Notes under the pieces: generated by a model
The model's database searches: none
Told to the model about the DNA's origin: nothing
What the model saw: the letters and a program-made list of their open reading frames with translations, nothing else
Source of the DNA: Bacillota bacterium
GTDB lineage: Bacteria; Bacillota; Proteinivoracia; UBA4975; VEMY01
DNA length: 64,000 bases
Assembly: GCA_009711825.1 (NCBI GenBank)
Contig: VEMY01000008.1
Coordinates: 15,345 to 79,344, forward strand
Direction of reading: 5' to 3'
Part shown: positions 9,297 through 58,081 of the stretch, in pieces
Position numbering within the stretch: the stretch's first letter is position 1
Layout: the number at the start of each line of letters is the position of its first letter
Program-made: the position numbers and the translations under genes

Positions 9297-9399
9297 CCTG
9301 AAGCCCCAAGAAAACAGCAATCAATCGCAAAAGCCGCACCCAGACGGATGCGGCTTTTCATTACGTCCCCGAGTGGCATTGCCGAATATGTCTCAGCAA

Positions 9400-9433
9400 A
9401 CCTCCGTCCCCGGGTGGGCACCCGAGTGGGCAG
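9400..9433 (+). repeat. degenerate copy of the ACCTCCGTCCCC-core REP-like palindromic element
   Basis: ACCTCCGTCCCCGGGTGGGCACCCGAGTGGGCAG shares the 12-nt core and TGGGCA arm with 11 other copies in the window. Confidence 0.6.
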
Positions 9434-20005: not shown

Positions 20006-20021
20006 TGTTTTATCCCCCTTG

Positions 20022-20888
20022 TCACCATTGTTTTGACTTGCGGTAATACATGCGTATGCCAATTGCAACTGCATTCAAGACCAATACCAGGCTCAATAGA
20101 ACCAACGCTGTTCCATAGGCCAGTGGTCGAACATCAGCAATCCGGTTATGCTGGGTGGAAAGAATATACAGATGGTAAGGTAAGGCCATAAACTGATCAC
20201 TGAGATTTTGCGGGAGCCGGGGCAAAAAGTACGCTGCGCCGGTGAGAATTATTGGCGCTGTTTCACCAGCGGCTCTTCCCAGGCCAAGAATTGCCCCGGT
20301 GGCAATACCAGGCAATGCGGCCGGAAGCACCTGATAACGAATTGCCTGCCAGCGTGTTGCACCAACGGCAAGGGCTGCATCGCGAAAACTTTGAGGAACC
20401 GCCTTCAAAGCCTCTTCTGCTGTAGTTACAAGTACAGGATAAGTCATTAAAGCTAAAGTCATGGCCGCGGCTAATAAGGAATGGCCCATCCCCAGAGTCG
20501 CCACAAACAGCCCCAAACCAAACAATCCAAATACGATCGAGGGAATTCCGGCAATATTGCGGATGCTGAGTCGGATTATCCTGTTCAGCTTCCCCTGTCT
20601 GGAACATTCATTGAGGTAAATTGCCGACCCTACCCCCAGGGGGACAGAAATCACTAAAGTAAGCAGCGAGACATAGATTGTGCCTATAATCGCCGGTTTA
20701 ATGCCGCCAGCAGTCATCCCTGCCCGGGGAACCTGGGACAAAAACTCCAGACTTATTGATCCGATGCCCCTGAAGATAATTGTCCCGACCAGATAAACCA
20801 AAACTAGTACTGCACCAAGAGAGGCTAGCCTTAAAAACATAAACCCGGCTGTTTCACTAAAAGAGTGTTTGTTAAGTTTAGTCCTCAT
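20022..20888 (-). CDS. pstA: phosphate ABC transporter permease PstA
   Basis: 288 aa permease with EAA motif region ([26 protein letters not shown]). Confidence 0.88.
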
Positions 20889-20889
20889 T

Positions 20890-35472: not shown

Positions 35473-35526
35473 AGCACGGCTCCTGTTCCTCTTTCTCCTG
35501 CCATTTTACACCAATATCACCCTCCC

Positions 35527-35559
35527 TTCAATCACCACCAGGTGCCCACCCGGGGACGG
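35527..35559 (-). repeat. REP-like palindromic element (core GGGGACGGAGGT on plus strand), tandem copy 1
   Basis: GTGCCCACCCGGGGACGGAGGTTCACTGGGCAC; 7-bp arms GTGCCCA/TGGGCAC flank the conserved 12-mer. Confidence 0.85.
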
Positions 35560-35591
35560 AGGTTCACTGGGCACTGCCCACCCGGGGACGG
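35560..35591 (-). repeat. REP-like palindromic element, tandem copy 2
   Basis: TGCCCACCCGGGGACGGAGGTTCACTGGGCAC, a direct tandem duplicate of the previous copy. Confidence 0.85.
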
Positions 35592-35604
35592 AGGTTCACT
35601 GGGC

Positions 35605-35647
35605 ACTTTCACTAATCTTGAACAAAGAAAAACCGGGCGAGCAAGAT
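35605..35647 (-). terminator. terminator after lgt
   Basis: GGACCGGGTTGAGTATCTTGCTCGCCCGGTTTTTCTTTGTT on the minus strand. Confidence 0.6.
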
Positions 35648-35649
35648 AC

Positions 35650-36402
35650 TCAACCCGGTCCTTGATATTCGTTTTCTCCCGCAGGGGACAATCGCAGCAA
35701 CACAACAGCCAAAGCTATCATAGCCAGGGCCATAACCTGCGACGGAGAGAAAACCCCTATCCCCGCACCCCGCACATCACCGCGGAAAAATTCCATCAGA
35801 AAACGGAACAGCCCGTAAGCGAACAGATACCTGGCCGCATTGGCACCGGGACGCCTGAGCAACCAGCCAACCAACAAAAATAGAAAGCCTGCTTCGAACA
35901 ATTGAGTGGGCAAGACTGGCCCCCCGTGGTGCAGAAACGGAGGCGAACCCGCCGGAAACAAAACCCCACCCCAAGCGACTGGACTTCCATAACAGCAGCC
36001 GGCCAGAAAGCAGCCGATGCGGCCAAACCCATGTGCAATCACCAGACAGGGGGCAATTAGTTCGATATCTTCTAGTAAATACTGGCGGGACAGAAGAAGC
36101 AAGTATAAGAAACAGAAGCTAAGCCCGCCAGCCAACAAACCGCCATAGAAAGTCAGGCCACCGAAGGACAGGGGTCTTGCGTGCACTAAGCTGTCAAACA
36201 CCGCGGCGCCAGCAAACCCGAAGATGATTGCCGCGCCCATGACGAAGGTCAGGCGATCATGATGGCCGGGAGGTCGAAAACTCTTTGCCGTCAACCTTGT
36301 CCAAAGCAAAAAGGCGCAGACCATCCCTAACCCGATAAGCAGGTTATACATCGGCACGACTAAAAAGAAATGGCCGAGATTCAGGTTAAGTTCTGGCAGC
36401 AT
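35650..36402 (-). CDS. lgt: prolipoprotein diacylglyceryl transferase
   Basis: 250 aa; hallmark GRIGCFLAGCCYG motif and Lgt TM topology. Confidence 0.88.
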   Translation of the reverse strand: MLPELNLNLGHFFLVVPMYNLLIGLGMVCAFLLWTRLTAKSFRPPGHHDRLTFVMGAAIIFGFAGAAVFDSLVHARPLSFGGLTFYGGLLAGGLSFCFLYLLLLSRQYLLEDIELIAPCLVIAHGFGRIGCFLAGCCYGSPVAWGGVLFPAGSPPFLHHGGPVLPTQLFEAGFLFLLVGWLLRRPGANAARYLFAYGLFRFLMEFFRGDVRGAGIGVFSPSQVMALAMIALAVVLLRLSPAGENEYQGPG

Positions 36403-36414
36403 CCTCAGACCTCC

Positions 36415-36783
36415 TTAAGCAGCAACCTCTTCTTTCTTCTGCACCAGGGCAAAGATACCGCCAATCAGGAAGAGTATCGCGACCACCAGCGCAATTAAGT
36501 TTCCGATAATCATCGTAATTCCGCACATCAACGCCGCTACAATCATCATGACACCAGAAAGCATCGGCTTTCCTTTGGCCATTAGGCCAAACACAAACCC
36601 CAGCAAAGCGCCAATCAGGCCCATCCAGAGATAGAAGTCTCCGACGCCAGTGCCGGCTTCATCTGCCACTGCCGACAAGCCCTCTGCGCAAGCACCGGCA
36701 CAGACAGCGCCGGGCAGCCCCAAAACACCACCGATGATTCCCATAATCATCGGCACATTGGAAGTACCACGTTTTTTAGCCAT
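36415..36783 (-). CDS. DUF4064-like small membrane protein
   Basis: Start set to ATG 36781-36783 (MAKKRGTSNVPMIMGIIGG, RBS AGAGGAGG); 3-4 TM helices. Confidence 0.5.
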   Translation of the reverse strand: MAKKRGTSNVPMIMGIIGGVLGLPGAVCAGACAEGLSAVADEAGTGVGDFYLWMGLIGALLGFVFGLMAKGKPMLSGVMMIVAALMCGITMIIGNLIALVVAILFLIGGIFALVQKKEEVAA

Positions 36784-36861
36784 AAACAAACCTCCTCTAA
36801 AATTTCCCCTGCGCAGACAGTATAGCAAGCGGCAGTGACAAACCCTGTCACCGGCATCAAA

Positions 36862-36894
36862 GTGCCCACCTGGGGACGGAGGTTTACTGGGCAC
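36862..36894 (-). repeat. REP-like palindromic element
   Basis: GTGCCCACCTGGGGACGGAGGTTTACTGGGCAC. Confidence 0.85.
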
Positions 36895-36954
36895 TTACTG
36901 TTCATACAAGGTCCGAGTCAATCGCCGCGAACTCCACCACCATCCAGACATAAT

Positions 36955-38274
36955 ATGTACCAGGTGTTGGAGGTGTGTACTGTGGCCAACTTTATGATTG
37001 ACCCAAACCTTGACGGTAATCTGGTTGTTTACGCGCAACAAACGCAACTACCTGAAATAGTCTACTTTCAATTTGGCCAATTTCATAAACCTCTCAGAGT
37101 CATCAGCAGCCCGCTTCTAAATCAGGGCGAGATAATTATTCCGAGACGTATCACTCCAGATATTAGCCTGCCGAATCTAGAATACGAAACTAGGTTAGCA
37201 GGGAAAAACTTGTTCCTGGGTCCGGTGATCGGGATAATGGTTGCCGCAAAGCATTATCGGCAGCCAGAATTAATTGCCTCGAGGCTTATCTATTACAGTC
37301 AAGACAAGGGCCTTATCTATCTGTTCGGTGAAGAACAGATAGATAAAACACGACAACTGATTGTCGGCAAGTTTTACAACCCTAGGACCTCGGAATTTGA
37401 AGAGGGACTCTTGCCATATCCAAATATAATCTACCTGCGAACCAACCCACAACCCAAAATCTATAGGCATTTAGTAGAGCATCTGGGCTCTGCAAACATC
37501 TATAACTATCCATTTCGAAGCAATAAATGGACTTTCTGGTCTTATGCCAGCACTGATTCCCTTGTATCTAAACATCTGCCAGAGACCAGAAAATTTACCG
37601 TGCCAACAGTCCGTAAAATGCTTGCCAAATATGATTCAGTTTACCTAAAACCAATACTACTGTCCCGGGGCAGGGGTATCTACCGTTTAAGCAAGGTTCG
37701 GTCAGGATTCAAGCTAGAGAACAGCCATGGCACCGTTTGGCGTGTCAAAAGCCGGGTTGAACTTAATCGCTTACTGCGTGGCAAAATCAAACGGAAGTAT
37801 ATCGCACAAGCGGAAGCACCCTTTGCATTCAACGGGCAGAAAGTGGACTTTCGCATCTACCTGCATAAAAATCGCGATCAAATCTGGCAACGTAAATATA
37901 TCGACACAAGAATCGCCAGGCAAAAAAGTATCATTACCAACCGGCGCAACCGACAGTACGCGCTGCCCGGGGATTTAGGCCTTCGGCAGATATATGGCCT
38001 GGATGAGCAGACGATTGGCGACAAATTTACCGAGATAACTGACTTAAGCATTCGGGCAGTGAAAACGCTGGAGGCGGCCGGACACAGCTTAGGTGATATT
38101 GCGGTAGACTTTATCCTCGATAAAGACCTGCACCCCTGGCTCTTGGAGGCGCAACCGGACTACCTTGCCGATAAATTCACCCCGGATAGGGTGTATATGC
38201 GCCGAATTGTCCAACCCGGCGCTCTCGACTATGCCCGGGGGTTATGGGAGCAAATGACACGCTCTGGCGTCTAG
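36955..38274 (+). CDS. YheC/YheD family ATP-grasp protein (endospore-coat-associated family)
   Basis: Start tentatively ATG 36955; the ORF-track start at 36835 lies inside the repeat. GPVIGIMVAAKHYRQPE..., LKPILLSRGRGIYRL, VDFRIYLHKNRD are characteristic of YheC/YheD TTL-like ATP-grasp proteins. Confidence 0.65.
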   Translation: MYQVLEVCTVANFMIDPNLDGNLVVYAQQTQLPEIVYFQFGQFHKPLRVISSPLLNQGEIIIPRRITPDISLPNLEYETRLAGKNLFLGPVIGIMVAAKHYRQPELIASRLIYYSQDKGLIYLFGEEQIDKTRQLIVGKFYNPRTSEFEEGLLPYPNIIYLRTNPQPKIYRHLVEHLGSANIYNYPFRSNKWTFWSYASTDSLVSKHLPETRKFTVPTVRKMLAKYDSVYLKPILLSRGRGIYRLSKVRSGFKLENSHGTVWRVKSRVELNRLLRGKIKRKYIAQAEAPFAFNGQKVDFRIYLHKNRDQIWQRKYIDTRIARQKSIITNRRNRQYALPGDLGLRQIYGLDEQTIGDKFTEITDLSIRAVKTLEAAGHSLGDIAVDFILDKDLHPWLLEAQPDYLADKFTPDRVYMRRIVQPGALDYARGLWEQMTRSGV

Positions 38275-38333
38275 GGGACAACTTCAAAGGAGAAGAAAAA
38301 CCGGCGCCCGCTTAGGTGGCGCCGGTTTCGCGT

Positions 38334-38366
38334 TGTGTCGAGTTTGCCCATTTAACCTCCGTCCCC
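38334..38366 (+). repeat. REP-like palindromic element, followed by a degenerate half copy (38369-38382)
   Basis: TTGCCCATTTAACCTCCGTCCCCAGATGGGCAG then AACCTTCGTCCCCG. Confidence 0.8.
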
Positions 38367-38393
38367 AGATGGGCAGGGGAACCTTCGTCCCCG

Positions 38394-39788
38394 TTAGTGC
38401 AGTTTGCCGGGGTTGAGGATGTTTTTGGGGTCAAAGGCCTGCTTGATACCGCGCATCAGCTGCATACTGGTCTCTCCGACGGATTGGCGCAGGAACATGG
38501 TCTTGGCATGGCCGATACCGTGCTCGCCTGAGACCTGCCCTTCCAACTCAATTGCCTTGTCGTAGAGCTTTTGCATGATTACCTGGATCTTTGGCTGCCA
38601 TTCCCGGTCGGGAATATCGTCTTTGAGGGCGTAGACATGGAGGTTGCCGTCGCCAGCGTGGCCAAAGCTACGGATGCGCACGCCGTATTCCGCCTCAAGT
38701 TGGTGGGCGAATTTAACAAACTCGGCGACCCTGTCCTTGGGCACAACCACATCGCACTCGTCCAGGCTGGCGGTGGAGCTTTTGATTGCCTCGAGAAAGG
38801 CGCCCCGGGCCTCCCAGATTGCTTCTTGCCGTTCGGCGGTGTTGGCGATGAACACATCAATCGCCCCGTGCTCCAGGAGCAACTTGGCCACATCATCGTA
38901 GATTTTCTCAATCTCTTCAGTGCTGTCGCCGTCAAAACTGAGCAGCAGATACGCATCGCTGGTCTTGTCGGGGAAGATTTTGCCCAGGTATTCCTCGGCT
39001 GCTTCAATGACCTCCCGCTGCATGAATTCTACAGCCGTGGGAATTACCTTGGAACGGAGAATCAGGGGCACGGTGTCAATGGCCTGCTCAAGACTTTCAA
39101 AGGGCGCCAACAGGCTGACGGTTTTTGCCGGCAGGGGCAGCAGACGCAGGGTGATCTCGGTGACCACCGCCAGCGTGCCTTCGCTCCCGACCAGCAAATC
39201 CTTGAGACTGTAGCCGGAACTGTTTTTGATCACTTTGCCGCCGGTCTCAATTACCTCGCCGTTGGGCAAGACAGCCTTGAGGCCCCGGACATAGTCGCGG
39301 GTGACGCCATATTTCACCGCCCGCATGCCGCCGGCGTTGGTCATCACATTGCCGCCGATGGTGGCGCTCTTCTCGCCTGGGTCCGGCGGATAGAGCAAGC
39401 CCTGCTCGCTTACGGCCTTGGCCAGTTCCATCAACAACACCCCCGGCTCCACCACCGCCATCAGATTGTCCTGGTCGATTTCGAGAATCCGGTTCATCGC
39501 AGTAAACGAGAGGAGGATGCCGCCGATAATCGCCACGGCGCCCCCACAGAGACCGGTTCCCGAACCCCGGGGGGTGACGGGAATGTTTTGCTCATGCGCA
39601 TAGCGCATGATTCGCGCCACTTCTTCGGTGGTCTGGACTTCCACCACCGCCTCGGGCATGAATTTTCCATACTCGGTCATTTCATCATGGCTGTAATCTT
39701 CATTAATCTCCGCTCCGCTGTAAACCCTGCCTGGAGCAACTTGCTCCAAAAACGCCAAGTCCTGCTGGTCCAGTTTTTTATAGGTCAT
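38394..39788 (-). CDS. FAD-binding lactate dehydrogenase / glycolate oxidase GlcD-like subunit (LctD-like)
   Basis: Start ATG 39786-39788 (RBS GGGAGGTGG); FAD-binding PCMH domain (RGSGTGLCGGA), C-terminal FAD-oxidase domain; about 464 aa. Confidence 0.8.
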   Translation of the reverse strand: MTYKKLDQQDLAFLEQVAPGRVYSGAEINEDYSHDEMTEYGKFMPEAVVEVQTTEEVARIMRYAHEQNIPVTPRGSGTGLCGGAVAIIGGILLSFTAMNRILEIDQDNLMAVVEPGVLLMELAKAVSEQGLLYPPDPGEKSATIGGNVMTNAGGMRAVKYGVTRDYVRGLKAVLPNGEVIETGGKVIKNSSGYSLKDLLVGSEGTLAVVTEITLRLLPLPAKTVSLLAPFESLEQAIDTVPLILRSKVIPTAVEFMQREVIEAAEEYLGKIFPDKTSDAYLLLSFDGDSTEEIEKIYDDVAKLLLEHGAIDVFIANTAERQEAIWEARGAFLEAIKSSTASLDECDVVVPKDRVAEFVKFAHQLEAEYGVRIRSFGHAGDGNLHVYALKDDIPDREWQPKIQVIMQKLYDKAIELEGQVSGEHGIGHAKTMFLRQSVGETSMQLMRGIKQAFDPKNILNPGKLH

Positions 39789-41007
39789 CGGTCTCCACCT
39801 CCCTTGACTCAAGTACATCAGCCAGTGTGTCGCCACCGCGTAATTTCATCAGCAACTCTGGCAGAATCTCATAGATATCGCCAACTACGCCATAATGGGC
39901 CACATCGAAAATCGGCGCCTGGGAATCTTTGTTGATGGCAATCACCGTCTCGGCACCGCCCATGCCGGCGGTAAACTGCACCGCGCCGGAGATGCCCAGG
40001 GTGATCAGCAGTTTGGGCCGCACGGTGCGACCGGAGAGTCCGATTTGCTGGGTGTGGTCACCCCAGCCTGCCTCGATAAGTGGCCGCGTCACCGCCACCT
40101 GGCCGCCCAAAAGTTCCGCTAGCTCCTGGACCATGGCCATGTCCTTCTGCTCCTTGATACCCCGCCCGGCTGCCACCAGCACCTCTGCCTCGGCGATGCC
40201 CGGGGTCTGCTGCTTTTTGCGCACCTGTAATACCTCAATAGCTGAACGTAGTTTTTCCGGCGGCAGCTGACATTCGACGATTATTCCGGTGGGATTGGGT
40301 AGCTTCTGCGCCGCATCCATCACCTTGTAGCGCACCGTGGCCAGCTGGGGCCGATGATTGGGAGTGACAATCTGCGCCATAATATTACCACCAAAAGCGG
40401 GACGGATCTGCACCAAGTCACTGTTTTCCTTGACATCTAGCACTGTGCAGTCGGCCGTGAGGCCGGTGCGGAAGCGGGTTGCCACCCGGGGGGCCAGCGA
40501 ACGCCCCACAGAAGTAGCGCCCACCAGGACAATTGTCGGCTTGTTGTTGTTGATGCAATCCTCAAAGGCGTTGGCAAAAGTATCGACCCGGAAATGCTCC
40601 AGCTCAGGATAATCATAAGTGAAGACCTTATCGACTCCGTAGTCCAACAGCTCCCGCCCGGCGGCAGCAAGATTATGCCCCACCAACAGTGCATAGACAG
40701 GTTGGCTGATTTTAGCTGCCAGTTCCCGGGCTTTGCCCACCAACTCGTAGGTTACGGGATGAACTTTGCCCTCCACATGCTCTACGAAGACCAGTACTCC
40801 CTGCCACTCGGCCTTATCCACCTGGGGTCGCGCCTCTGAAGCCAGGCTAATCGCCTGTTGCGGACAGCTCTTGATACACAGATTGCACATTTTGCAGGCG
40901 GCGGTAAAATCCAGCTTGCCTTCCTCAATAATGATTGCGTCAAAGGGACAGACCTGAATACATTCCTGACACAGGTCGCATTTATTGTGATTACATACCA
41001 GGGCCAT
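39778..41007 (-). CDS. etfA: electron transfer flavoprotein alpha subunit with N-terminal 2x[4Fe-4S] ferredoxin domain (LctC/FixB-like)
   Basis: 409 aa; N-terminal CDLCQECIQVCP and CKMCNLCIKSCP cluster motifs, then ETF alpha FAD-binding domain. Confidence 0.85.
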   Translation of the reverse strand: MALVCNHNKCDLCQECIQVCPFDAIIIEEGKLDFTAACKMCNLCIKSCPQQAISLASEARPQVDKAEWQGVLVFVEHVEGKVHPVTYELVGKARELAAKISQPVYALLVGHNLAAAGRELLDYGVDKVFTYDYPELEHFRVDTFANAFEDCINNNKPTIVLVGATSVGRSLAPRVATRFRTGLTADCTVLDVKENSDLVQIRPAFGGNIMAQIVTPNHRPQLATVRYKVMDAAQKLPNPTGIIVECQLPPEKLRSAIEVLQVRKKQQTPGIAEAEVLVAAGRGIKEQKDMAMVQELAELLGGQVAVTRPLIEAGWGDHTQQIGLSGRTVRPKLLITLGISGAVQFTAGMGGAETVIAINKDSQAPIFDVAHYGVVGDIYEILPELLMKLRGGDTLADVLESREVETDDL

Positions 41008-41807
41008 TAACGCTCACCCCCCTGAACAAATTTAAGCTCCCGGAGTTTGGCGAAGATTCGGCCGGCCAATTCTTTGCCCTCTCCATCCCAGATCTCTTTC
41101 TCCAAATTGCCCTCAGGGTTAAAGATCCGCTCCACCTGGGTCGGCGAGCCGCTGAGTCCATAGCGGTTCTCGTCCTGATCTTTGAAATCCGCGAAACAGA
41201 GCATGGGGATTTCCCGGTCGGCGGTGGCCAGTTTGCGCCGAAAGGAGGGAAGACGGGGCTGGTAAATCCCCTTTTCCACGGTCAACAGGCAGGGAAAAGG
41301 CATGCGCACAGTCTCCTCGCTGTCGGCCATATCCATGGTCACAGTTATGCTCTGTTTATTTACCGCTTCAATTGCAGTGACCCAGGCCACATGGGGAAGA
41401 CCAAGATACTCGGCAATCGCCGGCCCGACCTGGGCAGTATCGCCGTCGGTGGTCTGTTTGCCGCAGATAATCAGGTCCGGTGCGCCCAGGGCACGGATGC
41501 CCTGGGAAAGGGTGTAGGCCGTGGCCAGGACATCGGCGCCGGCAAACTTGCGATCGGAAAACACATACCCCCTGTCCGCACCCATCATATATGCTTCCTG
41601 AATCACGGCCCGGGCCTGGGGCGGCCCCATTGTCACCACTGTCACTTCGCCGCCCAACTCTTCCCGCAGCCGCATAGCTGTCTCCAAAGCATAGAGATCG
41701 TAGGGATTCAGTTTGCTGTCAACACCATCCCGAATCAAAACACCGTTTTCGTCCACCTCCACAGAAGTGGTTTCCGGTACTTGTTTTACACAGACAATAA
41801 TGTGCAT
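41007..41807 (-). CDS. etfB: electron transfer flavoprotein beta subunit (LctB/FixA-like)
   Basis: Start ATG 41805-41807 (MHIIVCVKQVPETTSVE...), typical EtfB N-terminus; about 266 aa. Confidence 0.85.
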   Translation of the reverse strand: MHIIVCVKQVPETTSVEVDENGVLIRDGVDSKLNPYDLYALETAMRLREELGGEVTVVTMGPPQARAVIQEAYMMGADRGYVFSDRKFAGADVLATAYTLSQGIRALGAPDLIICGKQTTDGDTAQVGPAIAEYLGLPHVAWVTAIEAVNKQSITVTMDMADSEETVRMPFPCLLTVEKGIYQPRLPSFRRKLATADREIPMLCFADFKDQDENRYGLSGSPTQVERIFNPEGNLEKEIWDGEGKELAGRIFAKLRELKFVQGGER

Positions 41808-41832
41808 CGCTTCCGTTTGCCCCCTTTTGGTA

Positions 41833-41846
41833 ATATGGTCTGACCA
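41833..41846. promoter_or_regulatory. GntR/FadR-type operator TGGTCTGACCAGTT upstream of etfB
   Basis: Palindrome TGGTCTGACCA (TGGT-N3-ACCA class), 26 nt upstream of the etfB start; identical copy at 42654. Confidence 0.6.
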
Positions 41847-41892
41847 GTTAAAGTCTTTGAACCTCTGTTGCAATGCGCTATTTCCCGGGGAA

Positions 41893-42618
41893 TCATGACT
41901 CCGGGGTGGTTTCTGACCGCTCCAGACGCGCTAAGCAATCATTTACATACTCCAAATGCGACTGCATGCGTCTAGATGCTTCTTCAGCATTCCCGGCGGC
42001 AATCGCCTCATAGATGCCCCGGTGCTGACTTATCAGGGTTTGCTGATTGGCCGGCTCCATCAGAATCCGGGACCGGGTATATTTGATGCTCTCATCGATG
42101 AGGTCGGAGATGGAATTGATGATGCTATAGAGCAGGCGGTTGCCGGTGGCCCGGGCAATTGTATAATGTAGTTCCTTGTCTAGGCGCACATTTTGCTCCT
42201 CTTCCAGCTGAAAGCGCTCCAAATTCTCTACAGCTGCGCCGATTGCTTCAATTTGCTCCTGATTGGCGTTTTTTGCTGCCAGAAAGGCGCTGTTTGTCTC
42301 TAAAATCATCCGGAATTCCAGAATCTCCTGGGGCGGAGTTTGCTCCAACAAAAAGATGATGGACAGGGGCTCCAGCAGGTTGCGGTCTACCTGCTCGCGG
42401 ATAAAATTCCCCTCGCCATGGCGACTTTCCACCAAACCGATGATCTGTAACGCACTAAGGGCCTCACGGATGGAGGTTCTACTCACCTGTAGCTGCTCCA
42501 CAAGCTCCCGCTCAGACGGTAGTTTATCGCCCCGCTTCAGCTCCCCGCTTTTAATCATCGCCTTGATTTGTGCGATTACTTGCTGATAGACTTTCACATC
42601 TTTAATCGGCGTAAAAAT
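41893..42618 (-). CDS. GntR family (FadR/FCD subfamily) transcriptional regulator, likely lactate-responsive (LctA/LldR-like); start codon uncertain
   Basis: wHTH (LPSERELVEQLQVSRTSIREAL) plus FCD domain; RBS GGAGGTGA at 42630-42637. No ATG in range; start is probably a non-ATG codon near 42615-42620. Confidence 0.7.
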   Translation of the reverse strand: MFTPIKDVKVYQQVIAQIKAMIKSGELKRGDKLPSERELVEQLQVSRTSIREALSALQIIGLVESRHGEGNFIREQVDRNLLEPLSIIFLLEQTPPQEILEFRMILETNSAFLAAKNANQEQIEAIGAAVENLERFQLEEEQNVRLDKELHYTIARATGNRLLYSIINSISDLIDESIKYTRSRILMEPANQQTLISQHRGIYEAIAAGNAEEASRRMQSHLEYVNDCLARLERSETTPES

Positions 42619-42653
42619 CGTAATCACCTCCAACCTTATGTATATCTGGACAG

Positions 42654-42667
42654 GTGGTCTGACCAGT
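42654..42667. promoter_or_regulatory. GntR/FadR-type operator TGGTCTGACCAGTT in the regulator's own 5' region (autoregulation candidate)
   Basis: Second exact copy of TGGTCTGACCAGTT. Confidence 0.55.
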
Positions 42668-42769
42668 TGTCTCCAGTCTAACCCGACCATCCAAACCTGT
42701 CAACAGCAGCGGGGACGTTTCCGTCTGGCAGGCAAACAAACTCTCCTGACCCGCAACCAGGTTTGATTT

Positions 42770-42836
42770 TGCCCATGCAACCTCCGTCCCCGAATGGGCA
42801 CAACCTCCGTCCCCGAATGGGCAGAATGGGCACACC
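42770..42836 (+). repeat. REP-like palindromic element, one full copy plus 1.5 tandem partial copies
   Basis: TGCCCATGCAACCTCCGTCCCCGAATGGGCA CAACCTCCGTCCCCGAATGGGCA GAATGGGCACACC. Confidence 0.85.
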
Positions 42837-42878
42837 TGCCAACCGCCAGCGGGGACTTCCCACTGGCTGAAGATAAAC

Positions 42879-42920
42879 TAACTCCCCTCTAAGAGCAGAA
42901 CTTTTACCCTGAGGGGAGTT
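42879..42920 (-). terminator. long hairpin (10-bp stem) downstream of the permease/small-ORF unit, possible terminator
   Basis: AACTCCCCTC...GAGGGGAGTT inverted repeat; moderately T-rich tail on the minus strand. Confidence 0.4.
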
Positions 42921-42924
42921 ATAA

Positions 42925-43056
42925 TTACTGGCAGCAGCCGAACTTTATTTCTCCGGCCCGGTCTTTTAGCATAGCGCTCAAATGCTCTCCCGAGCAGCTC
43001 TGGCACGCATTTTGGCCTGCGAAGACATTCCAAAGCCGCCGCAATACATCTACTAG
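42925..43056 (-). CDS. small Cys-containing ORF (43 aa), hypothetical; has a degenerate paralog at about 45060-45200
   Basis: ATG with strong RBS GGAGGTGGCAAC-ATG; MIKVLVDVLRRLWNVFAGQNACQSCSGEHLSAMLKDRAGEIKFGCCQ. Not in the ORF track because it is under 60 aa. Confidence 0.4.
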   Translation of the reverse strand, partial: LVDVLRRLWNVFAGQNACQSCSGEHLSAMLKDRAGEIKFGCCQ

Positions 43057-43081
43057 AACCTTGATCATGTTGCCACCTCCA

Positions 43082-44056
43082 CTATAATAAATTCGTTATA
43101 AGTTGATACAGGGTCCCCAAGACAACTCCTCCAGCCAGGACAATACCGACATAAAACCCGATCGCCCGCCTTTTAATAACTGTAGCCATACCGACCATTA
43201 CGCTGACACTGGTCCCCTGACCGGCAATCAGGAAGGCCAGCACAGCCCCCTCGCCAGCACCGGCATCAAGGAATGTTTCCAGAAGCGGCAGGCCGGCAGC
43301 GCCACTTACATATAGCGGCAGACCAATCAATGCTGCCAGGGGCACTGCGTAGAACTTCTCGGGACTAAATAACATCAGAATTGCTTCCGTAGGTATAAAG
43401 AGCTCCACCAGGCGCCCAATCGCGATAAACAGCATGAAGAAAATCAGCACCCGCTTGATACCCAATTCATAAATTTGTCGGACTACTTCATCCAAGCGCC
43501 AACGCCGGTACCAAACCGGGGGCGATGGAGCAACACTACAGCAAGCGGTTTCCCGGGCCGCGCTGCATCCGCACGCGGGGGTGGCAAGGCGGTACTGGTC
43601 TTTAAAAATTCCTGTCCGCTTTTCCAAATAAGACGCCAACAAGCCGCCACCAATGCCAAGAACTATTGCCGACACCAGACCAGCGGCAGCCAGGCGGGGC
43701 CCCAGAAACCCGGCCTGAAAAATGATCTGGGTCGGACTGGTCAGAGGCGAAGTGAGCAGAAACGCCATCACTGTTCCCCAGGGCAGGGCAGACACGAACA
43801 TTGCCAAGAGCACCGCCATCGTCCCGCAGGCGCAAAAGGGCGTAAACGCGCCTATACCTACCGCCCCGGCGATTGATGCCCCGGAACGCTTTTGCATCCT
43901 GCGAACCAGCTTGTCGCCAAAATAAACACGGATAACAACCGCCGTCACAATTCCCAGGGTAAGAATCCACCAGTCCAAGCGCAGATAGCGGATAACAGCT
44001 AGGATAATTTCATTGAGAATCTCAAGCAAACCCATAATACCTCCTATTTGTATCAT
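43082..44056 (-). CDS. predicted permease (PF03773/DUF318-type, COG0701)
   Basis: 324 aa, polytopic, with conserved cysteine pair region (TPFCACGTMAV) typical of this family. Confidence 0.6.
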   Translation of the reverse strand: MIQIGGIMGLLEILNEIILAVIRYLRLDWWILTLGIVTAVVIRVYFGDKLVRRMQKRSGASIAGAVGIGAFTPFCACGTMAVLLAMFVSALPWGTVMAFLLTSPLTSPTQIIFQAGFLGPRLAAAGLVSAIVLGIGGGLLASYLEKRTGIFKDQYRLATPACGCSAARETACCSVAPSPPVWYRRWRLDEVVRQIYELGIKRVLIFFMLFIAIGRLVELFIPTEAILMLFSPEKFYAVPLAALIGLPLYVSGAAGLPLLETFLDAGAGEGAVLAFLIAGQGTSVSVMVGMATVIKRRAIGFYVGIVLAGGVVLGTLYQLITNLL

Positions 44057-44077
44057 ACAAGTATTTATTTAAAAATT

Positions 44078-44545
44078 TTAGCAGCAAAACGGTTTAACTT
44101 TCTCAAATGCCATGAGTAATGTATTTACCGATTTCAGCACCGACTCCACTTCCCCCTGGGGAATTGCCTGGATAATTAAGCTGTAGTATTCTCTAACGGC
44201 CTGGGACAGCTCCCCTACAGCCTCTTTGCCTGTCTCCGTCAATCGCACATGAATCACTCGCCGGTCTTCCGGGGAGCGTTCCCGCACCAGGTAGCCATCC
44301 CGAACCAACGTGGAAACAATTCGGGTCATGGTGCTGGTATCCAGGTTCATCTTTTCGCTCAACTGATTCATAGTCAAGGCGGCGTGTTGCTGGACGTTGA
44401 ACAAAGTATAACATTGGGACATAGTAAACCCATGGCGGGAAAGTTTGCCGCGCTCAAAAATCTGCAATGTTCGCACCATGTTTTGAATCAATTCGCCCAG
44501 TTCGTCTACACAACAATTATGGTTAGTATCAACCACGGTAATCAC
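44078..44545 (-). CDS. MarR family transcriptional regulator
   Basis: 155 aa; wHTH LTMNQLSEKMNLDTSTMTRIVSTLVRDGYLVRE. Confidence 0.8.
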   Translation of the reverse strand: MITVVDTNHNCCVDELGELIQNMVRTLQIFERGKLSRHGFTMSQCYTLFNVQQHAALTMNQLSEKMNLDTSTMTRIVSTLVRDGYLVRERSPEDRRVIHVRLTETGKEAVGELSQAVREYYSLIIQAIPQGEVESVLKSVNTLLMAFEKVKPFCC

Positions 44546-44642
44546 CTCGCAAACTAATTGTATTATACAAATAGTTTGTTGTCAACCTTTTCTTTTTAAA
44601 AATAACCGGTGCCAGCGACACCGGGTAAGTTGACGTGTCGAT

Positions 44643-44675
44643 TTTGCCCATCTAACCTCCGTCCCCGAATGGGCA
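44643..44675 (+). repeat. REP-like palindromic element, 54 nt upstream of the DUF2249 start
   Basis: TTTGCCCATCTAACCTCCGTCCCCGAATGGGCA. Confidence 0.85.
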
Positions 44676-44728
44676 AGGAGTGTGGTGGCATACTGAAGAT
44701 AACAAACAACAAGGAGGTCGATTAATTA

Positions 44729-44956
44729 ATGGGCACCATACAAGTTGATGTCCGCTCCCTTGCCCCGGCGCAAAGGCACAGCACAATCATGGAACGCTTT
44801 CACTCCCTCAAGCCTGGCCAGGCAATGGAGCTAATCAATGACCACGAACCTAAACCCTTGTATTATCAGTTTCAAGCCGAATATCCCGACACCTTCGACT
44901 GGGAGTACCTTGAGGAAGGGCCCGAGGATTGGCGGGTAAAAATCACAAAGAAGTAA
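44729..44956 (+). CDS. DUF2249 family small protein
   Basis: 75 aa; DVRSLAPAQRHSTIMERFHSLKPGQAMELINDHEPKPLYYQFQAEYPDTFDWEYLEEGPEDWRVKI fits DUF2249; RBS AAGGAGG. Confidence 0.65.
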   Translation: MGTIQVDVRSLAPAQRHSTIMERFHSLKPGQAMELINDHEPKPLYYQFQAEYPDTFDWEYLEEGPEDWRVKITKK

Positions 44957-44957
44957 C

Positions 44958-45078
44958 TGCCCATATGGGGACGGAGGTTTGTTGGGCACTTTCCGACAGA
45001 GAAAAGGCCGGGAAAGCACCCACACAACCCGGCCTCTATTTTCTGCATTCTCCCCCCAGGCGGACTTGATTCCTGCGG
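44958..45078 (-). repeat. composite ~120-bp element: REP-like palindrome plus bidirectional terminator hairpin plus conserved tail; copy 1
   Basis: CTGCCCATATGGGGACGGAGGTTTGTTGGGCAC, then AAAAGGCCGGGAAAGCACCCACACAACCCGGCCTCTATTTT, then ...AGGCGGACTTGATTCCTGC; about 90% identical to 45726-45845. Confidence 0.8.
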
Positions 45079-45241
45079 GCGCTTAAGCGCTCTCCAGTGC
45101 AGCTGTGGCCTGCATTTTTGCTGACAAAGGCAATCACAAGCGACGCAATCCGCCTACTTAAATTATGTGGAGAGTTAGTAGCGCCACAGCAACAGTTTCT
45201 CCAGCTGCGCTGCAGCCACAGTCAGGGGTGGCAAGACTAAT

Positions 45242-45324
45242 ATGCCCATGAAACCTCCGTCCCCGTTTGGCCATTAACACCGCCAGTTCGAATTTGCCCA
45301 TCTAACCTCCGTCCCTGAATGGGC
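45242..45324 (+). repeat. two REP-like palindromic elements (45242-45273 degenerate; 45292-45324)
   Basis: TGCCCATGAAACCTCCGTCCCCGTTTGGCCAT ... TTTGCCCATCTAACCTCCGTCCCTGAATGGGCG. Confidence 0.8.
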
Positions 45325-45330
45325 GCTCCG

Positions 45331-45732
45331 TTAGGTTTCCAGATTGTGCACCTGGGTTGCGCGGCTGACCATTTTGGGATCATGGCTGACTACAATCACT
45401 GTCTTACCACTTTGGTGAATTGAGCTTAGCAGGTCCAGGATGATATCGCCGGTCTTTTGATCCAGGTTGCCTGTCGGTTCATCGGCAAGTATTAACTCAG
45501 GAGAGTTTGCCAGAGCCCGGGCAATTGCCACCCGTTGCTGTTCTCCGCCAGACAATTGCCAGGGGTAATGCTTTCGTCTATGGGACATGCCCATTTGCTC
45601 CAGCAGTTCGTCAACCCTTTGTTGGGCGGCATGCTTATCAATGCCGGCCAACAACAGCGGGACGAGAATGTTGTCCTCAGCATTGAACGAATTAATCAGG
45701 TTAAAAAAACTAAATACAAAGCCGATGCCCAC
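45331..45732 (-). pseudogene. 5'-truncated ABC transporter ATP-binding gene (FtsE/LolD-like) retaining Q-loop, signature, Walker B and H-loop but no Walker A
   Basis: 133 aa ORF: ...[15 protein letters not shown]...[12 protein letters not shown]...VVSHD; the reading frame begins exactly where the composite repeat at 45726 abuts. Confidence 0.65.
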
Positions 45733-45845
45733 ATGGGGACGGAGGTTTGTTGGGCACTTTCCGACAGAGAAAAGGCCGGGAAATCATCCACACAACCCGG
45801 CCCCTATTTAGTGCATTCGCCCCCTGGCGGACTTGATTCCTGCCG
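45726..45845 (-). repeat. composite ~120-bp element (REP-like palindrome plus terminator hairpin plus tail); copy 2
   Basis: ATGCCCACATGGGGACGGAGGTTTGTTGGGCAC...AAAAGGCCGGGAAATCATCCACACAACCCGGCCCCTATTT...GGCGGACTTGATTCCTGCC. Confidence 0.8.
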
Positions 45846-45862
45846 GAAAACGTCCCCGGTGG

Positions 45863-46846
45863 CTAGCCGGCGCAGGTGCTGCAGTTGACGCTTTGCTGCT
45901 TGGCGCCGCAGCGGTCGCCCCAAACGGCGACAATTTTGCCATCCATCTTCACCTGGATGATTTCGCAACAATTGCTACAGCCGTCACACTCATAACTCAC
46001 CGGCTCGAAATGCAAATCCGCGGCGCCAAATCCCCGAAAGTTGGTGGCTTCGCCGGTCCGCTCTACATGTTCCCGGGCGAGGATGGCGCTACCGATGGCG
46101 CCCATAATATTAAAGTTTTCCGGGATGATTACCTGATGGCCCACCTCCTGCTCGAAGGCGGCCTTGATGCCGCTGTTGGCGGCCACACCACCCTGGAACA
46201 CAAAGGGCGGTTGCAGGGTTTTGCCCCGGCCAAGGTTGTTAATATAATTACGGACAAGCGCCTCGCACAGCCCCTTGATGATCTCCGCCTTGGAAAAGCC
46301 AAACTGCTGCTTGGCAATCATGTCGGATTCGGCGAACACGGTACAGCGCCCGGCAATCCGCACATCCCGCCGGGCGCTGGCGGCCATCTCGCCAAACTGT
46401 TCAATCGGAATCGCCAAGCGCTCGGCCTGATGGTCCAGAAAGGAGCCGGTGCCAGCAGCGCAGACAGTGTTCATGGCGAAATCTACGACCATGCCGTCTT
46501 CTATAACAATAATTTTCGAGTCCTGGCCGCCGATCTCAAAGATTGTGCGCACATCGGGCACAACATTGGTGGTGGCCACCGCATGGGCGGTGATTTCATT
46601 CTTGATTACATCGGCGCCGACCATGACGCCAATCAGCTGGCGACCGCTGCCGGTGGTACCCACGCCCCGGATCTCAACATCTCCGGGCAGGGCCACAGCG
46701 GCTTTTTTCAGGCCACGCTTTACCGCCTCCAGGGGTTGACCGCTGGTGCGGACATATTCGCTGTAGAGCACCGAAAATTCCTCGTCTATACAGACAATGT
46801 TGGTGCTGACCGAGCCGACATCGATTCCAAGATAGACATTACGCAT
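45863..46846 (-). CDS. BadF/BadG/BcrA/BcrD-type ATPase (CoA-substrate-specific enzyme activase, HgdC-like) with C-terminal Cys-rich tail
   Basis: 327 aa; LGIDVGSVSTN... acetate/sugar-kinase fold ATPase; C-terminal CDGCSNCC...CG...CSTC. Confidence 0.65.
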   Translation of the reverse strand: MRNVYLGIDVGSVSTNIVCIDEEFSVLYSEYVRTSGQPLEAVKRGLKKAAVALPGDVEIRGVGTTGSGRQLIGVMVGADVIKNEITAHAVATTNVVPDVRTIFEIGGQDSKIIVIEDGMVVDFAMNTVCAAGTGSFLDHQAERLAIPIEQFGEMAASARRDVRIAGRCTVFAESDMIAKQQFGFSKAEIIKGLCEALVRNYINNLGRGKTLQPPFVFQGGVAANSGIKAAFEQEVGHQVIIPENFNIMGAIGSAILAREHVERTGEATNFRGFGAADLHFEPVSYECDGCSNCCEIIQVKMDGKIVAVWGDRCGAKQQSVNCSTCAG

Positions 46847-54798: not shown

Positions 54799-54812
54799 TC
54801 ACCTCCTCTGAA
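54799..54812. promoter_or_regulatory. palindromic operator TGAACAACTGTTCA (GAAC-N4-GTTC core) abutting the RBS of PTS IIA, with extra TGTTCA/TGAACA half sites at 54821 and 54926
   Basis: One of three near-identical sites in the window (54799, 60619, 62347). Confidence 0.55.
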
Positions 54813-54820
54813 CAACTGTT

Positions 54821-54932
54821 CAATACTATTGTTCACTGTGCTGCAATACTTCGCCATTGACCGCATATATTCCTGCTATGAATACAAGTTTTTTTGAAAT
54901 TTTGTACTGAAATTTTGTGCAGCACAGTGAAC
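54821..54932. repeat. 16-bp perfect inverted repeat TGTTCACTGTGCTGCA ... TGCAGCACAGTGAACA separated by 80 bp in the grdA-PTS intergenic region
   Basis: Arms at 54821-54836 and 54917-54932. Confidence 0.7.
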
Positions 54933-55433: not shown

Positions 55434-56744
55434 TTAATATGCTTCCGCGAAGAAGCGGCTGTGCCCCGACTGATTGCCGGAACAGTATAGCAATGTGGTG
55501 GTGGGAAATTCAATTGGGTCAAGAGCGTCAGGGAACCGCCCGCCGGCTTCTTTATCAAGACGAAGCTTAGGGCCCCCAACAACATTATCCATCCGGGGCA
55601 GCTGCACCGGCTTCTCAATGCTGGAGCCGCTGACAATTGCGTCGGCCTCAGGGACATCGTCAACCAGGAGTATTCCCTCGGTTCCATCAGCGCCGCCGAA
55701 TTCAAAGGTTACGGTGGAAGCCTTGATCCCAGCCTTCTCCGCCAGCTGGATTGTCAGCATGCCGTCGGTGGCAGCGTTGCCACCACCTTCCCAGGCCATG
55801 ACAAGTCCGTCGGCCTTGAGCATCCGGGCCAGCTTCACACAGACCCCGGCGCAACGCACCTTATGCCAATGGGTGGGGTTGTGGCTGCGGGAGAAAATGA
55901 CGCCCTTGAAGTTCAAATCCTTGCCGTGACGGCGGTAGAGGTCCAACAGAATCGGGTGATTCACATGTAGATAGGTGGGAACCTTAAAGGCTGGCCACAC
56001 ATAGTTTCCGCTGACAACGCAGCCGTCCAGCATCTCATTTGGATGAAGAACCGTCGGCACCAGCTCCTCCACATCCTTGCCATAGAGGAATGTGTTGGCG
56101 TAGACACCTTGGTTCTGCACCTGCCAGACCAAAACCACGTTGGGAAGATCTGGATTTGTCTCTTCGATGGAGAACAATTCCTCGTCATCTGCTTCACCCT
56201 GAGCTGCCTTAGCAGCCAGGTATTCGGCTACTTTTAAGCTGGAGAGCCGGATATCCCGGTCATACTCTTCAGCAGATTTGCCGGGTTTCAGCTCATAGGT
56301 CATTACCAGATTCACAGTCTCCGAAAAGGGAGTGATCCCCTTGTACGGTCCTGTCATATCCATGATTGCTTCCCGGGGATACAAGAGGCCGCTGCTGGCA
56401 CTGGCGCTGTCCCAGGGCAAGGGCGCCGACTGCATGACGGTAAAACCGTCTAAAACAGCGGTAGTGCCTTCGCCTATCATCTCCGGCGAGCCGAAGAATC
56501 CGGAATATGGCACGCCGCGGCCGTCAAGCCTGGCCATAGGCTGCAATGTATCCAAAAGGTGAATTATCCGCGTGGACTCGCCCGGGTGGACCAAATGGAA
56601 CTCAATTCTTTCGATATTTTCGGTCTGTTCGGCGGCCAGTCGCTCAATCTCTTCTTTATTTATGGTCAGCTTGCCCGATTCCAGGGCTGTTTGAGCGCCC
56701 CAGGCGGCAGACTGAACCCGATAGTATTTTCTGGTCAGTTCCAT
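55434..56744 (-). CDS. grdE: glycine/sarcosine/betaine reductase component B proprotein subunit (GrdE/GrdG/GrdI family)
   Basis: 436 aa; Gly_reductase family architecture, positioned 3' of the selenoprotein B gene. Confidence 0.7.
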   Translation of the reverse strand: MELTRKYYRVQSAAWGAQTALESGKLTINKEEIERLAAEQTENIERIEFHLVHPGESTRIIHLLDTLQPMARLDGRGVPYSGFFGSPEMIGEGTTAVLDGFTVMQSAPLPWDSASASSGLLYPREAIMDMTGPYKGITPFSETVNLVMTYELKPGKSAEEYDRDIRLSSLKVAEYLAAKAAQGEADDEELFSIEETNPDLPNVVLVWQVQNQGVYANTFLYGKDVEELVPTVLHPNEMLDGCVVSGNYVWPAFKVPTYLHVNHPILLDLYRRHGKDLNFKGVIFSRSHNPTHWHKVRCAGVCVKLARMLKADGLVMAWEGGGNAATDGMLTIQLAEKAGIKASTVTFEFGGADGTEGILLVDDVPEADAIVSGSSIEKPVQLPRMDNVVGGPKLRLDKEAGGRFPDALDPIEFPTTTLLYCSGNQSGHSRFFAEAY

Positions 56745-58081
56745 TATCTTTCCTCCTTTTCCAACCGGACATGAAACAGTGTCGGCTCTTCTACCGGTGT
56801 TTGCAATGCCTCCACAGCCTTCAGGAGCATTTGCTTCTGGAACTCTTTCTCCCGGTCAGCCGGTAGTTCCGGCGCTCCTGCCGGCGATGTGAACTGGTTG
56901 CCGGCAATGACCCGGTTGGCCCCTACCGACAGGGCAATGGATGTAAAGGCGGTGATCAGGACAGCAGAGATGCCCACACGTTCGAGTTCCTTGGTAATCG
57001 TTGCACCGCAACGAGTACAAGTACCTCACGTGGAAGTAAGAATCGCTGCCGGCACACCCGCTTCCAGAAGCTCAGCGGCGATTTGCGCGCCTAATCCTTC
57101 ACTGGTCTTAATGTTGGTGCCAACACCAGCGGTCGAGTAGAACTTGGGATAAACGCGGCCAATCTTCCCTTCCTGCTCCAAAGCGCGCAGGGGGCTATAA
57201 GGCACTACCCGGGACGGGTCTTCATTAACCAAAGTAGTGTCGAAACCACCGTGGATAGACTCATACTCGCCGGCAGCTAACTCTTCCAGTCCTTCCAGGC
57301 TGTAGCTGCCGTAGCTGGTGGAGAAGGCCTGCTTTAACCCATCCGGGTTGCCGGTGGGCACCAAAGCGCCGGTTGTAATCAGGGCAAATGTTTTGGTTTC
57401 AGGCTGCTCAAGAACCGGTGCTGGTGGCACCTGCTCAAAGCCGCGCAGCGGCACTTCGGTCTCATATTCTTCGCCCCGCAATTTCTTAAGCAACAGTTCC
57501 ACAGTCCGTTGGGCTGCAGTCTTTTCATGCCATTCGTTGTAGCGATAGCCCCGGGGGAAGTAACCTTCCAGACGGGCGGGCCCAACTTCCTCTCCCTTTG
57601 CCAGCTTGAGGGCAAATGCGGCCAGCGGTGGCAGGGCCTTACGCATACCGGCTGCTGTTTCCGGTGTGCGGATGATATAGTTATCAGATACAAACATTGG
57701 CACCGCCGGGTTCTCCCAATACATGGCGGTTACTGCGGGAATCCCAAACTCCCGACGCACAAAATCTACGAACTTGCCGCAGGCAACACCGTAGCGCCCA
57801 GCGTTGAAGGCGGGCCCGGCAATCACTACGTCAGGCTTGACCTCCTGAATAATTTCCCGCAGGCGAGGCAATAATCCCTCGAATTTGTCATCATCATTAA
57901 AATAGTTGTCACCGCAGGCAATGGTTTTTACCACTTCCATCTCATCCTGCCAAAACTTATCCATACCGAGAGCCGGCCCCAGCTTTTGGTCGTATTCCTG
58001 TAACCCAATATCTGCTTTGTCTTCGCCGCCAATTCCGGCGTAAAACTGATTGATGTAGTACAAGGCTCTTTTCTTAGACAT
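56744..58081 (-). CDS. grdB: glycine/sarcosine/betaine reductase component B selenoprotein (GrdB/GrdF/GrdH family) with in-frame UGA at 57026-57028
   Basis: The 351 aa ORF ending AAILTST is followed, in the same frame, by TGA and a 94 aa continuation (GTCTRCGATITKELERVGISAVLITAF...) that is the ORF-track 56744-56977 entry. U-x-x-C-x-x-C context; total about 445 aa, typical for GrdB. Confidence 0.8.
56999..57013 (-). ncRNA. SECIS-like hairpin 12 nt downstream of the grdB-like UGA
   Basis: Minus-strand CGTTGC-GGT-GCAACG (6-bp stem, GGU loop) at the spacing expected for a bacterial SECIS. Confidence 0.5.

Follow-up and report, generated by a model that had tools for sequence, protein, structure and literature searches.

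What kind of element is the short palindromic repeat that recurs at gene boundaries in a Bacillota bacterium contig (VEMY01000008.1 of assembly GCA_009711825.1; positions 15,345 to 79,344 of the forward strand, a 64,000-nt stretch referred to here as the window), and does it act as DNA or as RNA? A first-pass annotation of these nucleotides had reported at least 12 copies, mostly between 35.5 and 45.8 kb, and had proposed either a family of repetitive extragenic palindromes (REPs) or miniature inverted-repeat transposable elements (MITEs), or RNA hairpins that titrate ribosomes. Our analysis finds that the repeat family is real, statistically solid, previously undescribed and new in its architecture, and that it is best read as acting on DNA rather than through RNA. 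A new, lineage-specific, non-autonomous mobile or recombination-prone DNA element, similar in behavior to REPs, MITEs and mobile insertion cassettes (MICs), is the account that we favor, albeit tentatively. The 12-nt core, ACCTCCGTCCCC, was matched at 13 sites of the window with no more than one mismatch, compared with a mean of 0.31 in shuffled sequences; none of 100 shuffles had 13 matches, and the shuffle maximum was 2. Of the 13 cores, 12 were within the 35.5 to 45.8 kb stretch, with the remaining core at 9.4 kb. The cores start at 9400, 38355, 38381 (partial), 42780, 42803, 44655, 45253, and 45305 on the plus strand and at 35552, 35584, 36872, 44967, and 45735 on the minus strand. Perfect arms, TGCCCA-N19-TGGGCA, were detected in eight copies (0.25 expected), while two copies had a single arm mismatch (45243-45273, TGGCCA; and 45295-45325, TGGGCG) and three further copies were partial; further degenerate half-copies were present at 9364-9378 and 45851-45863. 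All copies were found to be intergenic and in both orientations, at the gene boundaries named by the first-pass annotation. Both of its tandem pairs exist, although the first pair starts at 35543/35575, 16 nt later than the 35527/35560 given, and has an exact 32-nt period; the second pair (42770/42801) has a 23-nt period plus an extra 9-nt piece.

Alignment of the ten full copies defined a symmetric unit of 31 bp (6+3+13+3+6), TGCCCA-N3-AACCTCCGTCCCC-N3-TGGGCA. Mean pairwise identity was 0.96 for the arms and 0.98 for the 13-nt core, compared with 0.33 for the two 3-nt spacers and 0.27 for the flank beyond the TGGGCA arm, both at background level. When eight independent copies were scored for mismatches to the column majority, the spacers differed at 24 of 48 positions and the arms plus core at only 3 of 200 (Fisher p = 5e-17), with 25 arm and core positions per unit nearly invariant. 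A covariance model made from the ten copies was scanned over the window, the 9 kb to its left and eight loci from relatives. True copies scored 30-56 bits and noise at most 12 bits on the correct strand, the gap between was empty, and no decayed copies were detected in any of these sequences. The combination of invariant hexamers, an invariant asymmetric 13-mer and free 3-nt spacers points toward a sequence-specific reader, and this pattern of constraint would fit recognition of specific sequence blocks by a protein. As a single strand the unit is predicted to fold into a hairpin with a stem of 6-11 bp (mostly 6-7 bp, and 10-11 bp in two copies) and a loop of 13-19 nt, within which the conserved 13-mer is located; no stem covariation was apparent in the alignment, since the arms never vary.

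The unit was also found to be polar, with a sharp end at the TGGGCA arm; on the opposite flank, homology runs on variably for up to 90 nt and includes subtype-specific conserved bases. Two subtypes were distinguished: (i) type A, TTTGCCCAT...GAATGGGCA, with the conserved 5′ extension GTKTCGAWTT (flank bases GAWTT); and (ii) type B, AAAGTGCCCA...TGGGCAC (flank bases GAAAG). Inside the cluster, all type A cores are on the plus strand and all type B cores are on the minus strand. When read on the GGGGACGGAGGTT strand, a GC-rich terminator-type hairpin was positioned 10-28 nt downstream at seven of nine loci, generating long forms of 85-122 nt, and no terminator-type structure was found on the other (sharp-end) flank. 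About 115-122 nt are common to the copy that follows lgt (35575-35690) and to two repeats here termed R1 (44958-45079) and R2 (45726-45846); this common stretch spans the terminator hairpin and, at lgt, also the last 12 codons. Between R1 and R2, identity is 93% over 121 nt and the homology ends exactly at the arm tip; the lgt flank aligned to R1 with a local score of 52 (shuffle mean 16, maximum 32). Similarly, the type A regions 38294-38378 and 44599-44678 share a linker and a hairpin with compensating stem changes. Most copies, however, share nothing past 31-45 nt. The features are given below by locus, with promoters based on consensus predictions only here and throughout.

9364..9432, plus: outlier copy with the LppM terminator on one side and the lysK promoter on the other (covariance-model score 37 bits), composed of a degenerate half-copy CGTCCCCGAGTGGCA (9364-9378), a degenerate left arm TTGCCGA (9379-9385), a left spacer of 14 nt compared with 4 nt in other copies (9386-9399), the core (9400-9411), the arm TGGGCA (9415-9420) and a duplicated 12-nt CCCGAGTGGGCA (9421-9432)
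35543..35606, minus: tandem pair of type B copies (exact 32-nt period), flanked by the lgt terminator and a dacA promoter-like site (-35 at 35531)
35607..35690, minus: type B long-form extension with linker, lgt terminator hairpin and last ~12 lgt codons, homologous to R1/R2
36863..36893, minus: type B copy between the divergent genes DUF4064 and yheC, with a stem that reaches 10 bp
38294..38392, plus: type A long form with a bidirectional yheC/lct terminator (~38300-38326), linker GTGTCGAGTT and full copy (38345-38375)
38381-38392, plus: partial copy, core ACCTTCGTCCCC, adjoining the LctD stop codon
42745-42761: hairpin beside the 42770 copy, with the GntR promoter further out
42770..42832, plus: type A copy (42770-42800), 23-nt duplicate without the left arm (42801-42823) and 9-nt duplicate GAATGGGCA (42824-42832)
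44599..44675, plus: type A long form between the MarR promoter and DUF2249, with hairpin 44606-44624 (a minus-strand terminator), linker GTGTCGATTT and copy 44645-44675
44958..45079, minus: R1, beginning 1 nt past the DUF2249 stop codon, with type B copy 44958-44988, bidirectional terminator 45007-45035 plus T-run, and an orf47-like 3′-end fragment
45057..45235, minus: pseudogene debris, orf47-like at 45057-45158 (resembling 42935-43054) and ArsP-like at 45195-45235 (resembling 43548-43588)
45243..45325, plus: type A copies at 45243-45273 (arm TGGCCA) and, 52 nt further on, at 45295-45325 (core ...CCCT, arm TGGGCG; ending 5 nt from the ABC-fragment stop codon), the only full copies altered at constrained positions
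45331..45732, minus: 5′-truncated ABC ATPase gene with ~85 N-terminal residues missing and homology from the outer tip of the 45726-45756 copy
45726..45863, minus: R2, 93% identical to R1, with type B copy 45726-45756, terminator and orf47-like end to 45846
45851-45863, opposite orientation: degenerate half-copy adjoining the stop codon of the BcrAD-type gene

Three smaller observations touch these loci. A 10-nt direct repeat, CAGCGGGGAC, at 42707-42716 and 42847-42856 brackets 130 nt in which a hairpin and the tandem type A copies are found; the hexamer GGGGAC, with which the reverse complement of the core begins, is present in each repeat, and the pair could be a target duplication or more repeat debris. 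The palindrome GTGACAGGGTTTGTCAC at ~36834-36850, in the gap that separates the type B copy from the start of DUF4064, may be an operator with no relation to this family. The outlier copy is directly followed by an extended -10 lysK promoter, TGnTATAAT (9458-9466), and the lysK gene (9517-11024, plus strand) encodes a class I lysyl-tRNA synthetase (PF01921) in this Bacillota genome.

The genes of the cluster were found to be ordinary chromosomal genes, including dacA, lgt, DUF4064, yheC, the lctD-etfA-etfB-gntR lactate operon, orf47-arsP-marR, DUF2249, and a BcrAD-type activase cluster. Each of the seven intergenic regions that follow one another from 35,473 to 45,862 holds at least one copy, compared with only one of ~25 intergenic regions (≥50 nt) elsewhere, the region upstream of lysK; the probability of a run of at least seven among 8 occupied of 33 regions is ~3e-5. 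Four kinds of position are occupied: (i) between a terminator and the next promoter (lysK and dacA); (ii) divergent promoter regions (DUF4064/yheC and marR/DUF2249); (iii) a convergent gap (yheC/lctD); and (iv) sites straight after stop codons (LctD, DUF2249, and the ABC fragment). Where the context is co-directional, the core is sense at three loci and antisense at two. At lysK, dacA, DUF4064, and DUF2249, the copies precede the predicted promoters or follow a terminator.

Signs of DNA rearrangement were also found. The reading frame of the ABC ATPase gene starts at the arm tip of the 45726-45756 copy, and the orf47- and arsP-like fragments are located between R1 and the copies that follow it. 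The yheC gene (a YheC/D-type ATP-grasp protein, 36982-38274, plus strand) lies between inverted copies, 36863-36893 (minus) and 38345-38375 (plus), that are 90% complementary and have their sharp ends outward. It has the lowest GC content of the region (0.47, with 0.51 at third codon positions, compared with 0.54-0.57 for its neighbors), and its closest database homolog is 48% identical; this low GC content and distant homolog suggest that yheC may be of foreign origin. The window is part of an uncultured, metagenome-assembled genome (proteins MTI94589-98). The nearest EtfA relatives (Anaerobranca and Alkalicella) are 71-73% identical, and the best syntenic relative available, locus L021, has an EtfA that is 73% identical. 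Both GntR-Etf-LctD and DacA-LactB-DUF3006-Gmad2 are present in this locus with the gene order and orientation of the window, yet the interval between LctD and DacA encodes FtsX-ABC, an acetyltransferase and RNHCP in L021 as opposed to yheC, DUF4064, and lgt in the window, such that yheC is missing from the syntenic interval. The ABC fragment of the window is the best match to the L021 ABC protein (52%, compared with at most 36% for the other ABC ATPases of the window). In L021 itself (an ENA bin.7 contig of 153 kb, positions 7151-21203), LarA is found between GntR and EtfB, and a MacB-type FtsX-ABC pair follows LctD; in each of the four other relatives examined, the surroundings of the lactate operon also differ. 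An independent Logan assembly of SRR9198955 reproduces 35578-44994 exactly, and three Logan k-mer contigs break at 35572/35578, 44994, and 45754, which correspond to the tandem copy and the R1/R2 repeats. Thus, the repeat family limits the contiguity of short-read assembly in this organism.

The distribution of the repeat was found to be narrow. The readable part of this genome comprises ~73 kb, the window and the 9 kb to its left, and the eight loci from relatives contain no copy. Among 185,579 GTDB species representatives, 16 singleton matches were returned, which is at chance level, with none having the left arm and with the copies of the window itself not returned either, so that this genome, or at least the present part of it, lies outside what that scan covers. 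JGI metagenomes gave no matches and then a single chance match within a GC-rich coding region, and nothing was below E = 0.1 in viral contigs, plasmids, and phages. Rfam 15, searched at the gathering score and at E ≤ 5, had no family that matched any copy. A full-text literature search with the core string on both strands retrieved only an unrelated primer, and no paper was found to cite the run accession SRR9198955. The absence from relatives and public collections suggests a recent, lineage-restricted origin.

Several of these results argue for an action on DNA: orientation is mixed, copies occur outside likely transcripts, the unit has a sharp end, and both the gene truncation and the duplication stop there. 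The occupation of 5′, 3′, convergent and divergent intergenic contexts, and of both strands, was likewise counted in favor of a DNA element. For the mobile or recombination-prone element that we tentatively favor, a transposase or recombinase, with its gene outside the window, would recognize the invariant arms and core and act on them from a distance, breaking and joining DNA at the outer tip of the arm. Local spread and recombination between copies may have scrambled the 10-kb stretch, and would have left as traces the truncated ABC gene, the ArsP/orf47 debris, the 121-nt duplication, and the single genes (yheC and DUF2249) bracketed by inverted copies. The repeats and their statistics, the constraint, the polarity with its sharp end, the truncation at the tip, the pseudogene debris and the absence from relatives are observed directly, whereas mobility, a cognate enzyme and joining at the tip are inferred. 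A number of observations weigh against this account: (i) target-site duplications flank none of the 10 full copies; (ii) a transposase or recombinase domain was found in none of the ~65 open reading frames (ORFs) of the window and none was detected in the 9 kb to its left, in agreement with the earlier remark that no RAYT/IS200-type transposase is visible in the window; (iii) the 9 kb to the left hold no copy, and no copy was seen outside the ~73-kb stretch read; (iv) the clustering in seven consecutive regions is unlike that of dispersed REP/REPIN families; (v) the hairpin is weak, with energies of -9 to -15 kcal/mol and z-scores that are mostly above -2 and mostly nonsignificant; (vi) selection at each locus would leave no decayed copies just as turnover of an element would; and (vii) simple replication slippage can account for the tandem partial copies. 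A more specific version, which we consider quite improbable, is that the 31-bp three-block site and its attached terminator form the working end of a new small DNA element of Bacillota that captures, flips and deletes single genes locally. Its enzyme would perhaps see a hairpin in which the loop rather than the stem provides specificity, as at the nick sites of HUH-type (rolling-circle) nucleases, and the stretch would be a self-contained chromosomal shuffling zone instead of a dispersed REP population.

The same conservation can be viewed from the side of the host. Three conserved blocks, free 3-bp spacers and no decayed copies imply selection at each locus, as expected if the 31-mers were double-stranded DNA binding sites of a host protein (a regulator, a nucleoid or insulator protein, or a domain-boundary factor) that reads the two hexamers and the central 13-mer. 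Such a protein would be indifferent to orientation relative to transcription; four copies (lysK, dacA, DUF4064, and DUF2249) are 13-40 bp upstream of predicted -10 boxes, and each transcription-unit boundary of the stretch is occupied. Promoterless positions are occupied too, however, including the convergent yheC/lctD gap, the site 1 nt past the DUF2249 stop codon and sites among the pseudogene fragments; the distance to promoters varies, the flanking genes have no common function, and neither the truncation of a gene at the tip nor the R1/R2 duplication is explained. Furthermore, to our knowledge no regulator architecture has half-sites 25 bp apart, center to center, around a non-palindromic core. 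We regard binding by a host protein as somewhat unlikely, and are equally doubtful of its extension, that the cluster marks or regulates this specific 10-kb chromosomal stretch. If, instead, local segmental duplication, deletion and gene conversion had passively generated the copies from 3′-end/terminator modules of one unstable region, with no dedicated enzyme and no function, duplicates would retain their spacers and flanks; in the present family 25 positions are nearly invariant, whereas identity in the spacers and in the outer flank is no higher than background. One copy is also 26 kb away at lysK, and the homology shared by most copies is confined to 31-45 nt. Passive debris is therefore rather improbable in our view, even though it would account for the extreme local clustering, the R1/R2 duplication and the homology of the lgt 3′ end to R1/R2, the paralogous pseudogene pieces and the slippage-type tandem partial copies.

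An action through RNA was suggested by the first-pass annotation, which read the core as containing CACCTCC, the 3′ end of 16S rRNA. This was an error, as every copy reads AACCTCC and only the hexamer ACCTCC matches the 16S tail. The RNA account would have the loop show ACCUCCGUCCCC, an anti-Shine-Dalgarno (anti-SD) mimic that could mask downstream SDs, or, on the other strand, GGGGACGGAGGUU, a strong SD-like site. The latter would be placed just past stop codons and before terminators, where it could affect translation, ribosome release, termination or mRNA stability. ACCTCC does complement GGAGGT, type A copies have an ATG 4 nt after GGAGGT within the stem, and on the GGGG strand the element is 0-5 nt after the stop codon at three loci (LctD, DUF2249, and the ABC fragment) and upstream of a terminator hairpin at seven of nine. 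In silico, the core also pairs with the SDs of DUF2249 and DUF4064; this pairing is not significant and is due to the hexamer alone, and on present evidence the anti-SD resemblance is incidental. The co-directional orientation is mixed (three loci compared with two), the GGGG strand is in a 3′ untranslated region (UTR) at only four of nine loci, and the lysK, dacA, DUF4064, and DUF2249 copies are probably outside 5′ UTRs. With nonsignificant fold z-scores, no Rfam match, no stem covariation and a 16S match of only a hexamer, we judge either form of the RNA account to be very unlikely, and the ribosome-titrating hairpin is not supported in view of the mixed orientation, the four copies upstream of predicted promoters or after terminators, and the corrected core.

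Compared with known systems, the element shares a number of features with the canonical REP families but falls outside them. Similar to REP/BIME and REPIN-RAYT systems (PMC3116915, PMC3337134, PMC3733652), it is short (20-40 bp for these systems), multicopy, lineage-specific and divided into sequence subtypes, has inverted arms, is extragenic and often near 3′ ends or terminators, and lacks target-site duplication. Tagged REPs have a terminal unpaired GTAG or CGTC, stems of 6-13 bp and loops mostly of 2-5 nt, and Firmicutes are not mentioned in a survey of these repeats in more than 80 species (PMC3733652). In contrast, the present element has no terminal GTAG/CGTC tag, its only CGTC being inside the loop; its loop of 17-19 nt (13-19 nt when all predicted folds are counted) is the most conserved part; its copies form direct tandems rather than head-to-head or tail-to-tail dimers; and they are tightly clustered rather than dispersed, with no RAYT gene in the window or left flank. 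Based on tag, loop and dimer arrangement, it is not a canonical REP. It also differs from MITEs in that target-site duplications are missing at every full copy; the window contains no insertion sequence (IS), and no match was found in plasmids, phages, GTDB representatives, or metagenomes. The REP/MITE proposal is thus partly supported, the best reading being a species- or lineage-specific interspersed DNA repeat of that broad kind, but without the tag, short loop and inverted dimers of canonical REPs or the target-site duplications of MITEs.

MICs are IS-derived inverted repeats around passenger genes, such as MIC231 of Bacillus cereus. The present element resembles MITEs and MICs in that inverted units bracket single transposase-less genes (yheC, DUF2249, and the ABC fragment), the sharp outer end begins TG...CA, and a neighboring gene is cut exactly at the tip. 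The bracketing of yheC agrees with a MIC at the level of structure only. Set against this likeness, no parent IS is known, the unit is only 31 bp with its own arms mutually inverted, and many copies are solo. Correia/NEMIS, ERIC, and BOX/RUP elements are at least 100-150 bp in length, with defined terminal inverted repeats, TA duplications (Correia) and genome-wide dispersal. The element is like them in being a small intergenic repeat tied to terminators that could influence neighboring transcripts in either orientation, but it has no sequence similarity to them and none was matched in Rfam. The integron attC arrays (e.g., the VCRs of Vibrio) are likewise dense, local, near-identical imperfect palindromes that separate small gene units or fragments; here, however, the orientations are mixed, no integrase or R″/R′ core sites are present, and the center is invariant and the ends short, which is the reverse of attC.

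A number of further candidates were tried and rejected: (i) an integron-like cassette array, as the blocks are ancestral syntenic housekeeping operons (lct, dacA, and lgt) with their own promoters and terminators; (ii) an operator for the local MarR/GntR regulator, as a terminator separates the element from those promoters; (iii) a replication-terminus or polar motif, as the cumulative GC skew is monotonic and the orientations are mixed; (iv) sigma-70, sigma-54, or ECF promoters, as the hexamers and spacing misfit when the sequence is read in this way; and (v) small ORFs from an ATG/TTG inside the arm, as these are conserved only within the repeat and read through terminators. Retro- or rolling-circle copying, based on 5′-truncated copies sharing a 3′ end, was dropped, as the phase of the tandems is ambiguous and slippage suffices.

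In Proteobacteria, much is known about short interspersed palindromic repeats and the RAYT transposases with which they are paired; for anaerobic Bacillota, documentation is poor. The architecture described here is unusual in its conserved loop, variable spacers and fixed polarity to terminators, and in its dense occupation of one 10-kb stretch with gene decay and broken synteny. If mobile, the element would represent an unrecognized enzyme-site pair and a way for small repeats to remodel operon boundaries; if the copies were the binding array of a host protein, they would define a new kind of chromosomal domain. Either way, the repeats explain why short-read assemblies break at these points.

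Outside the cluster, the window was found to have other features. An Rfam SECIS_4 match at 56988-57025 (minus strand; 44.5 bits, above the gathering score) lies in a glycine/sarcosine/betaine reductase cluster with a grdB-type gene (57026-58081), component B (55434-56744) and split grdA ORFs, which indicates that the organism uses selenocysteine. A second, unrelated palindrome was identified as TGAACAATTGTTCA-like 27-mers in intergenic regions at 54809-54835, 54895-54921, 60619-60645, and 62347-62373, near PTS/grd, AOR, and alkaline phosphatase/thioredoxin genes; these are probably the operator family of a regulator. Two tandem paralogous OpuA-type glycine-betaine ABC transporter operons (12248-15274 and 15454-18466), each encoding a binding protein, a permease and an ATPase with CBS domains, share 72-76% DNA identity.

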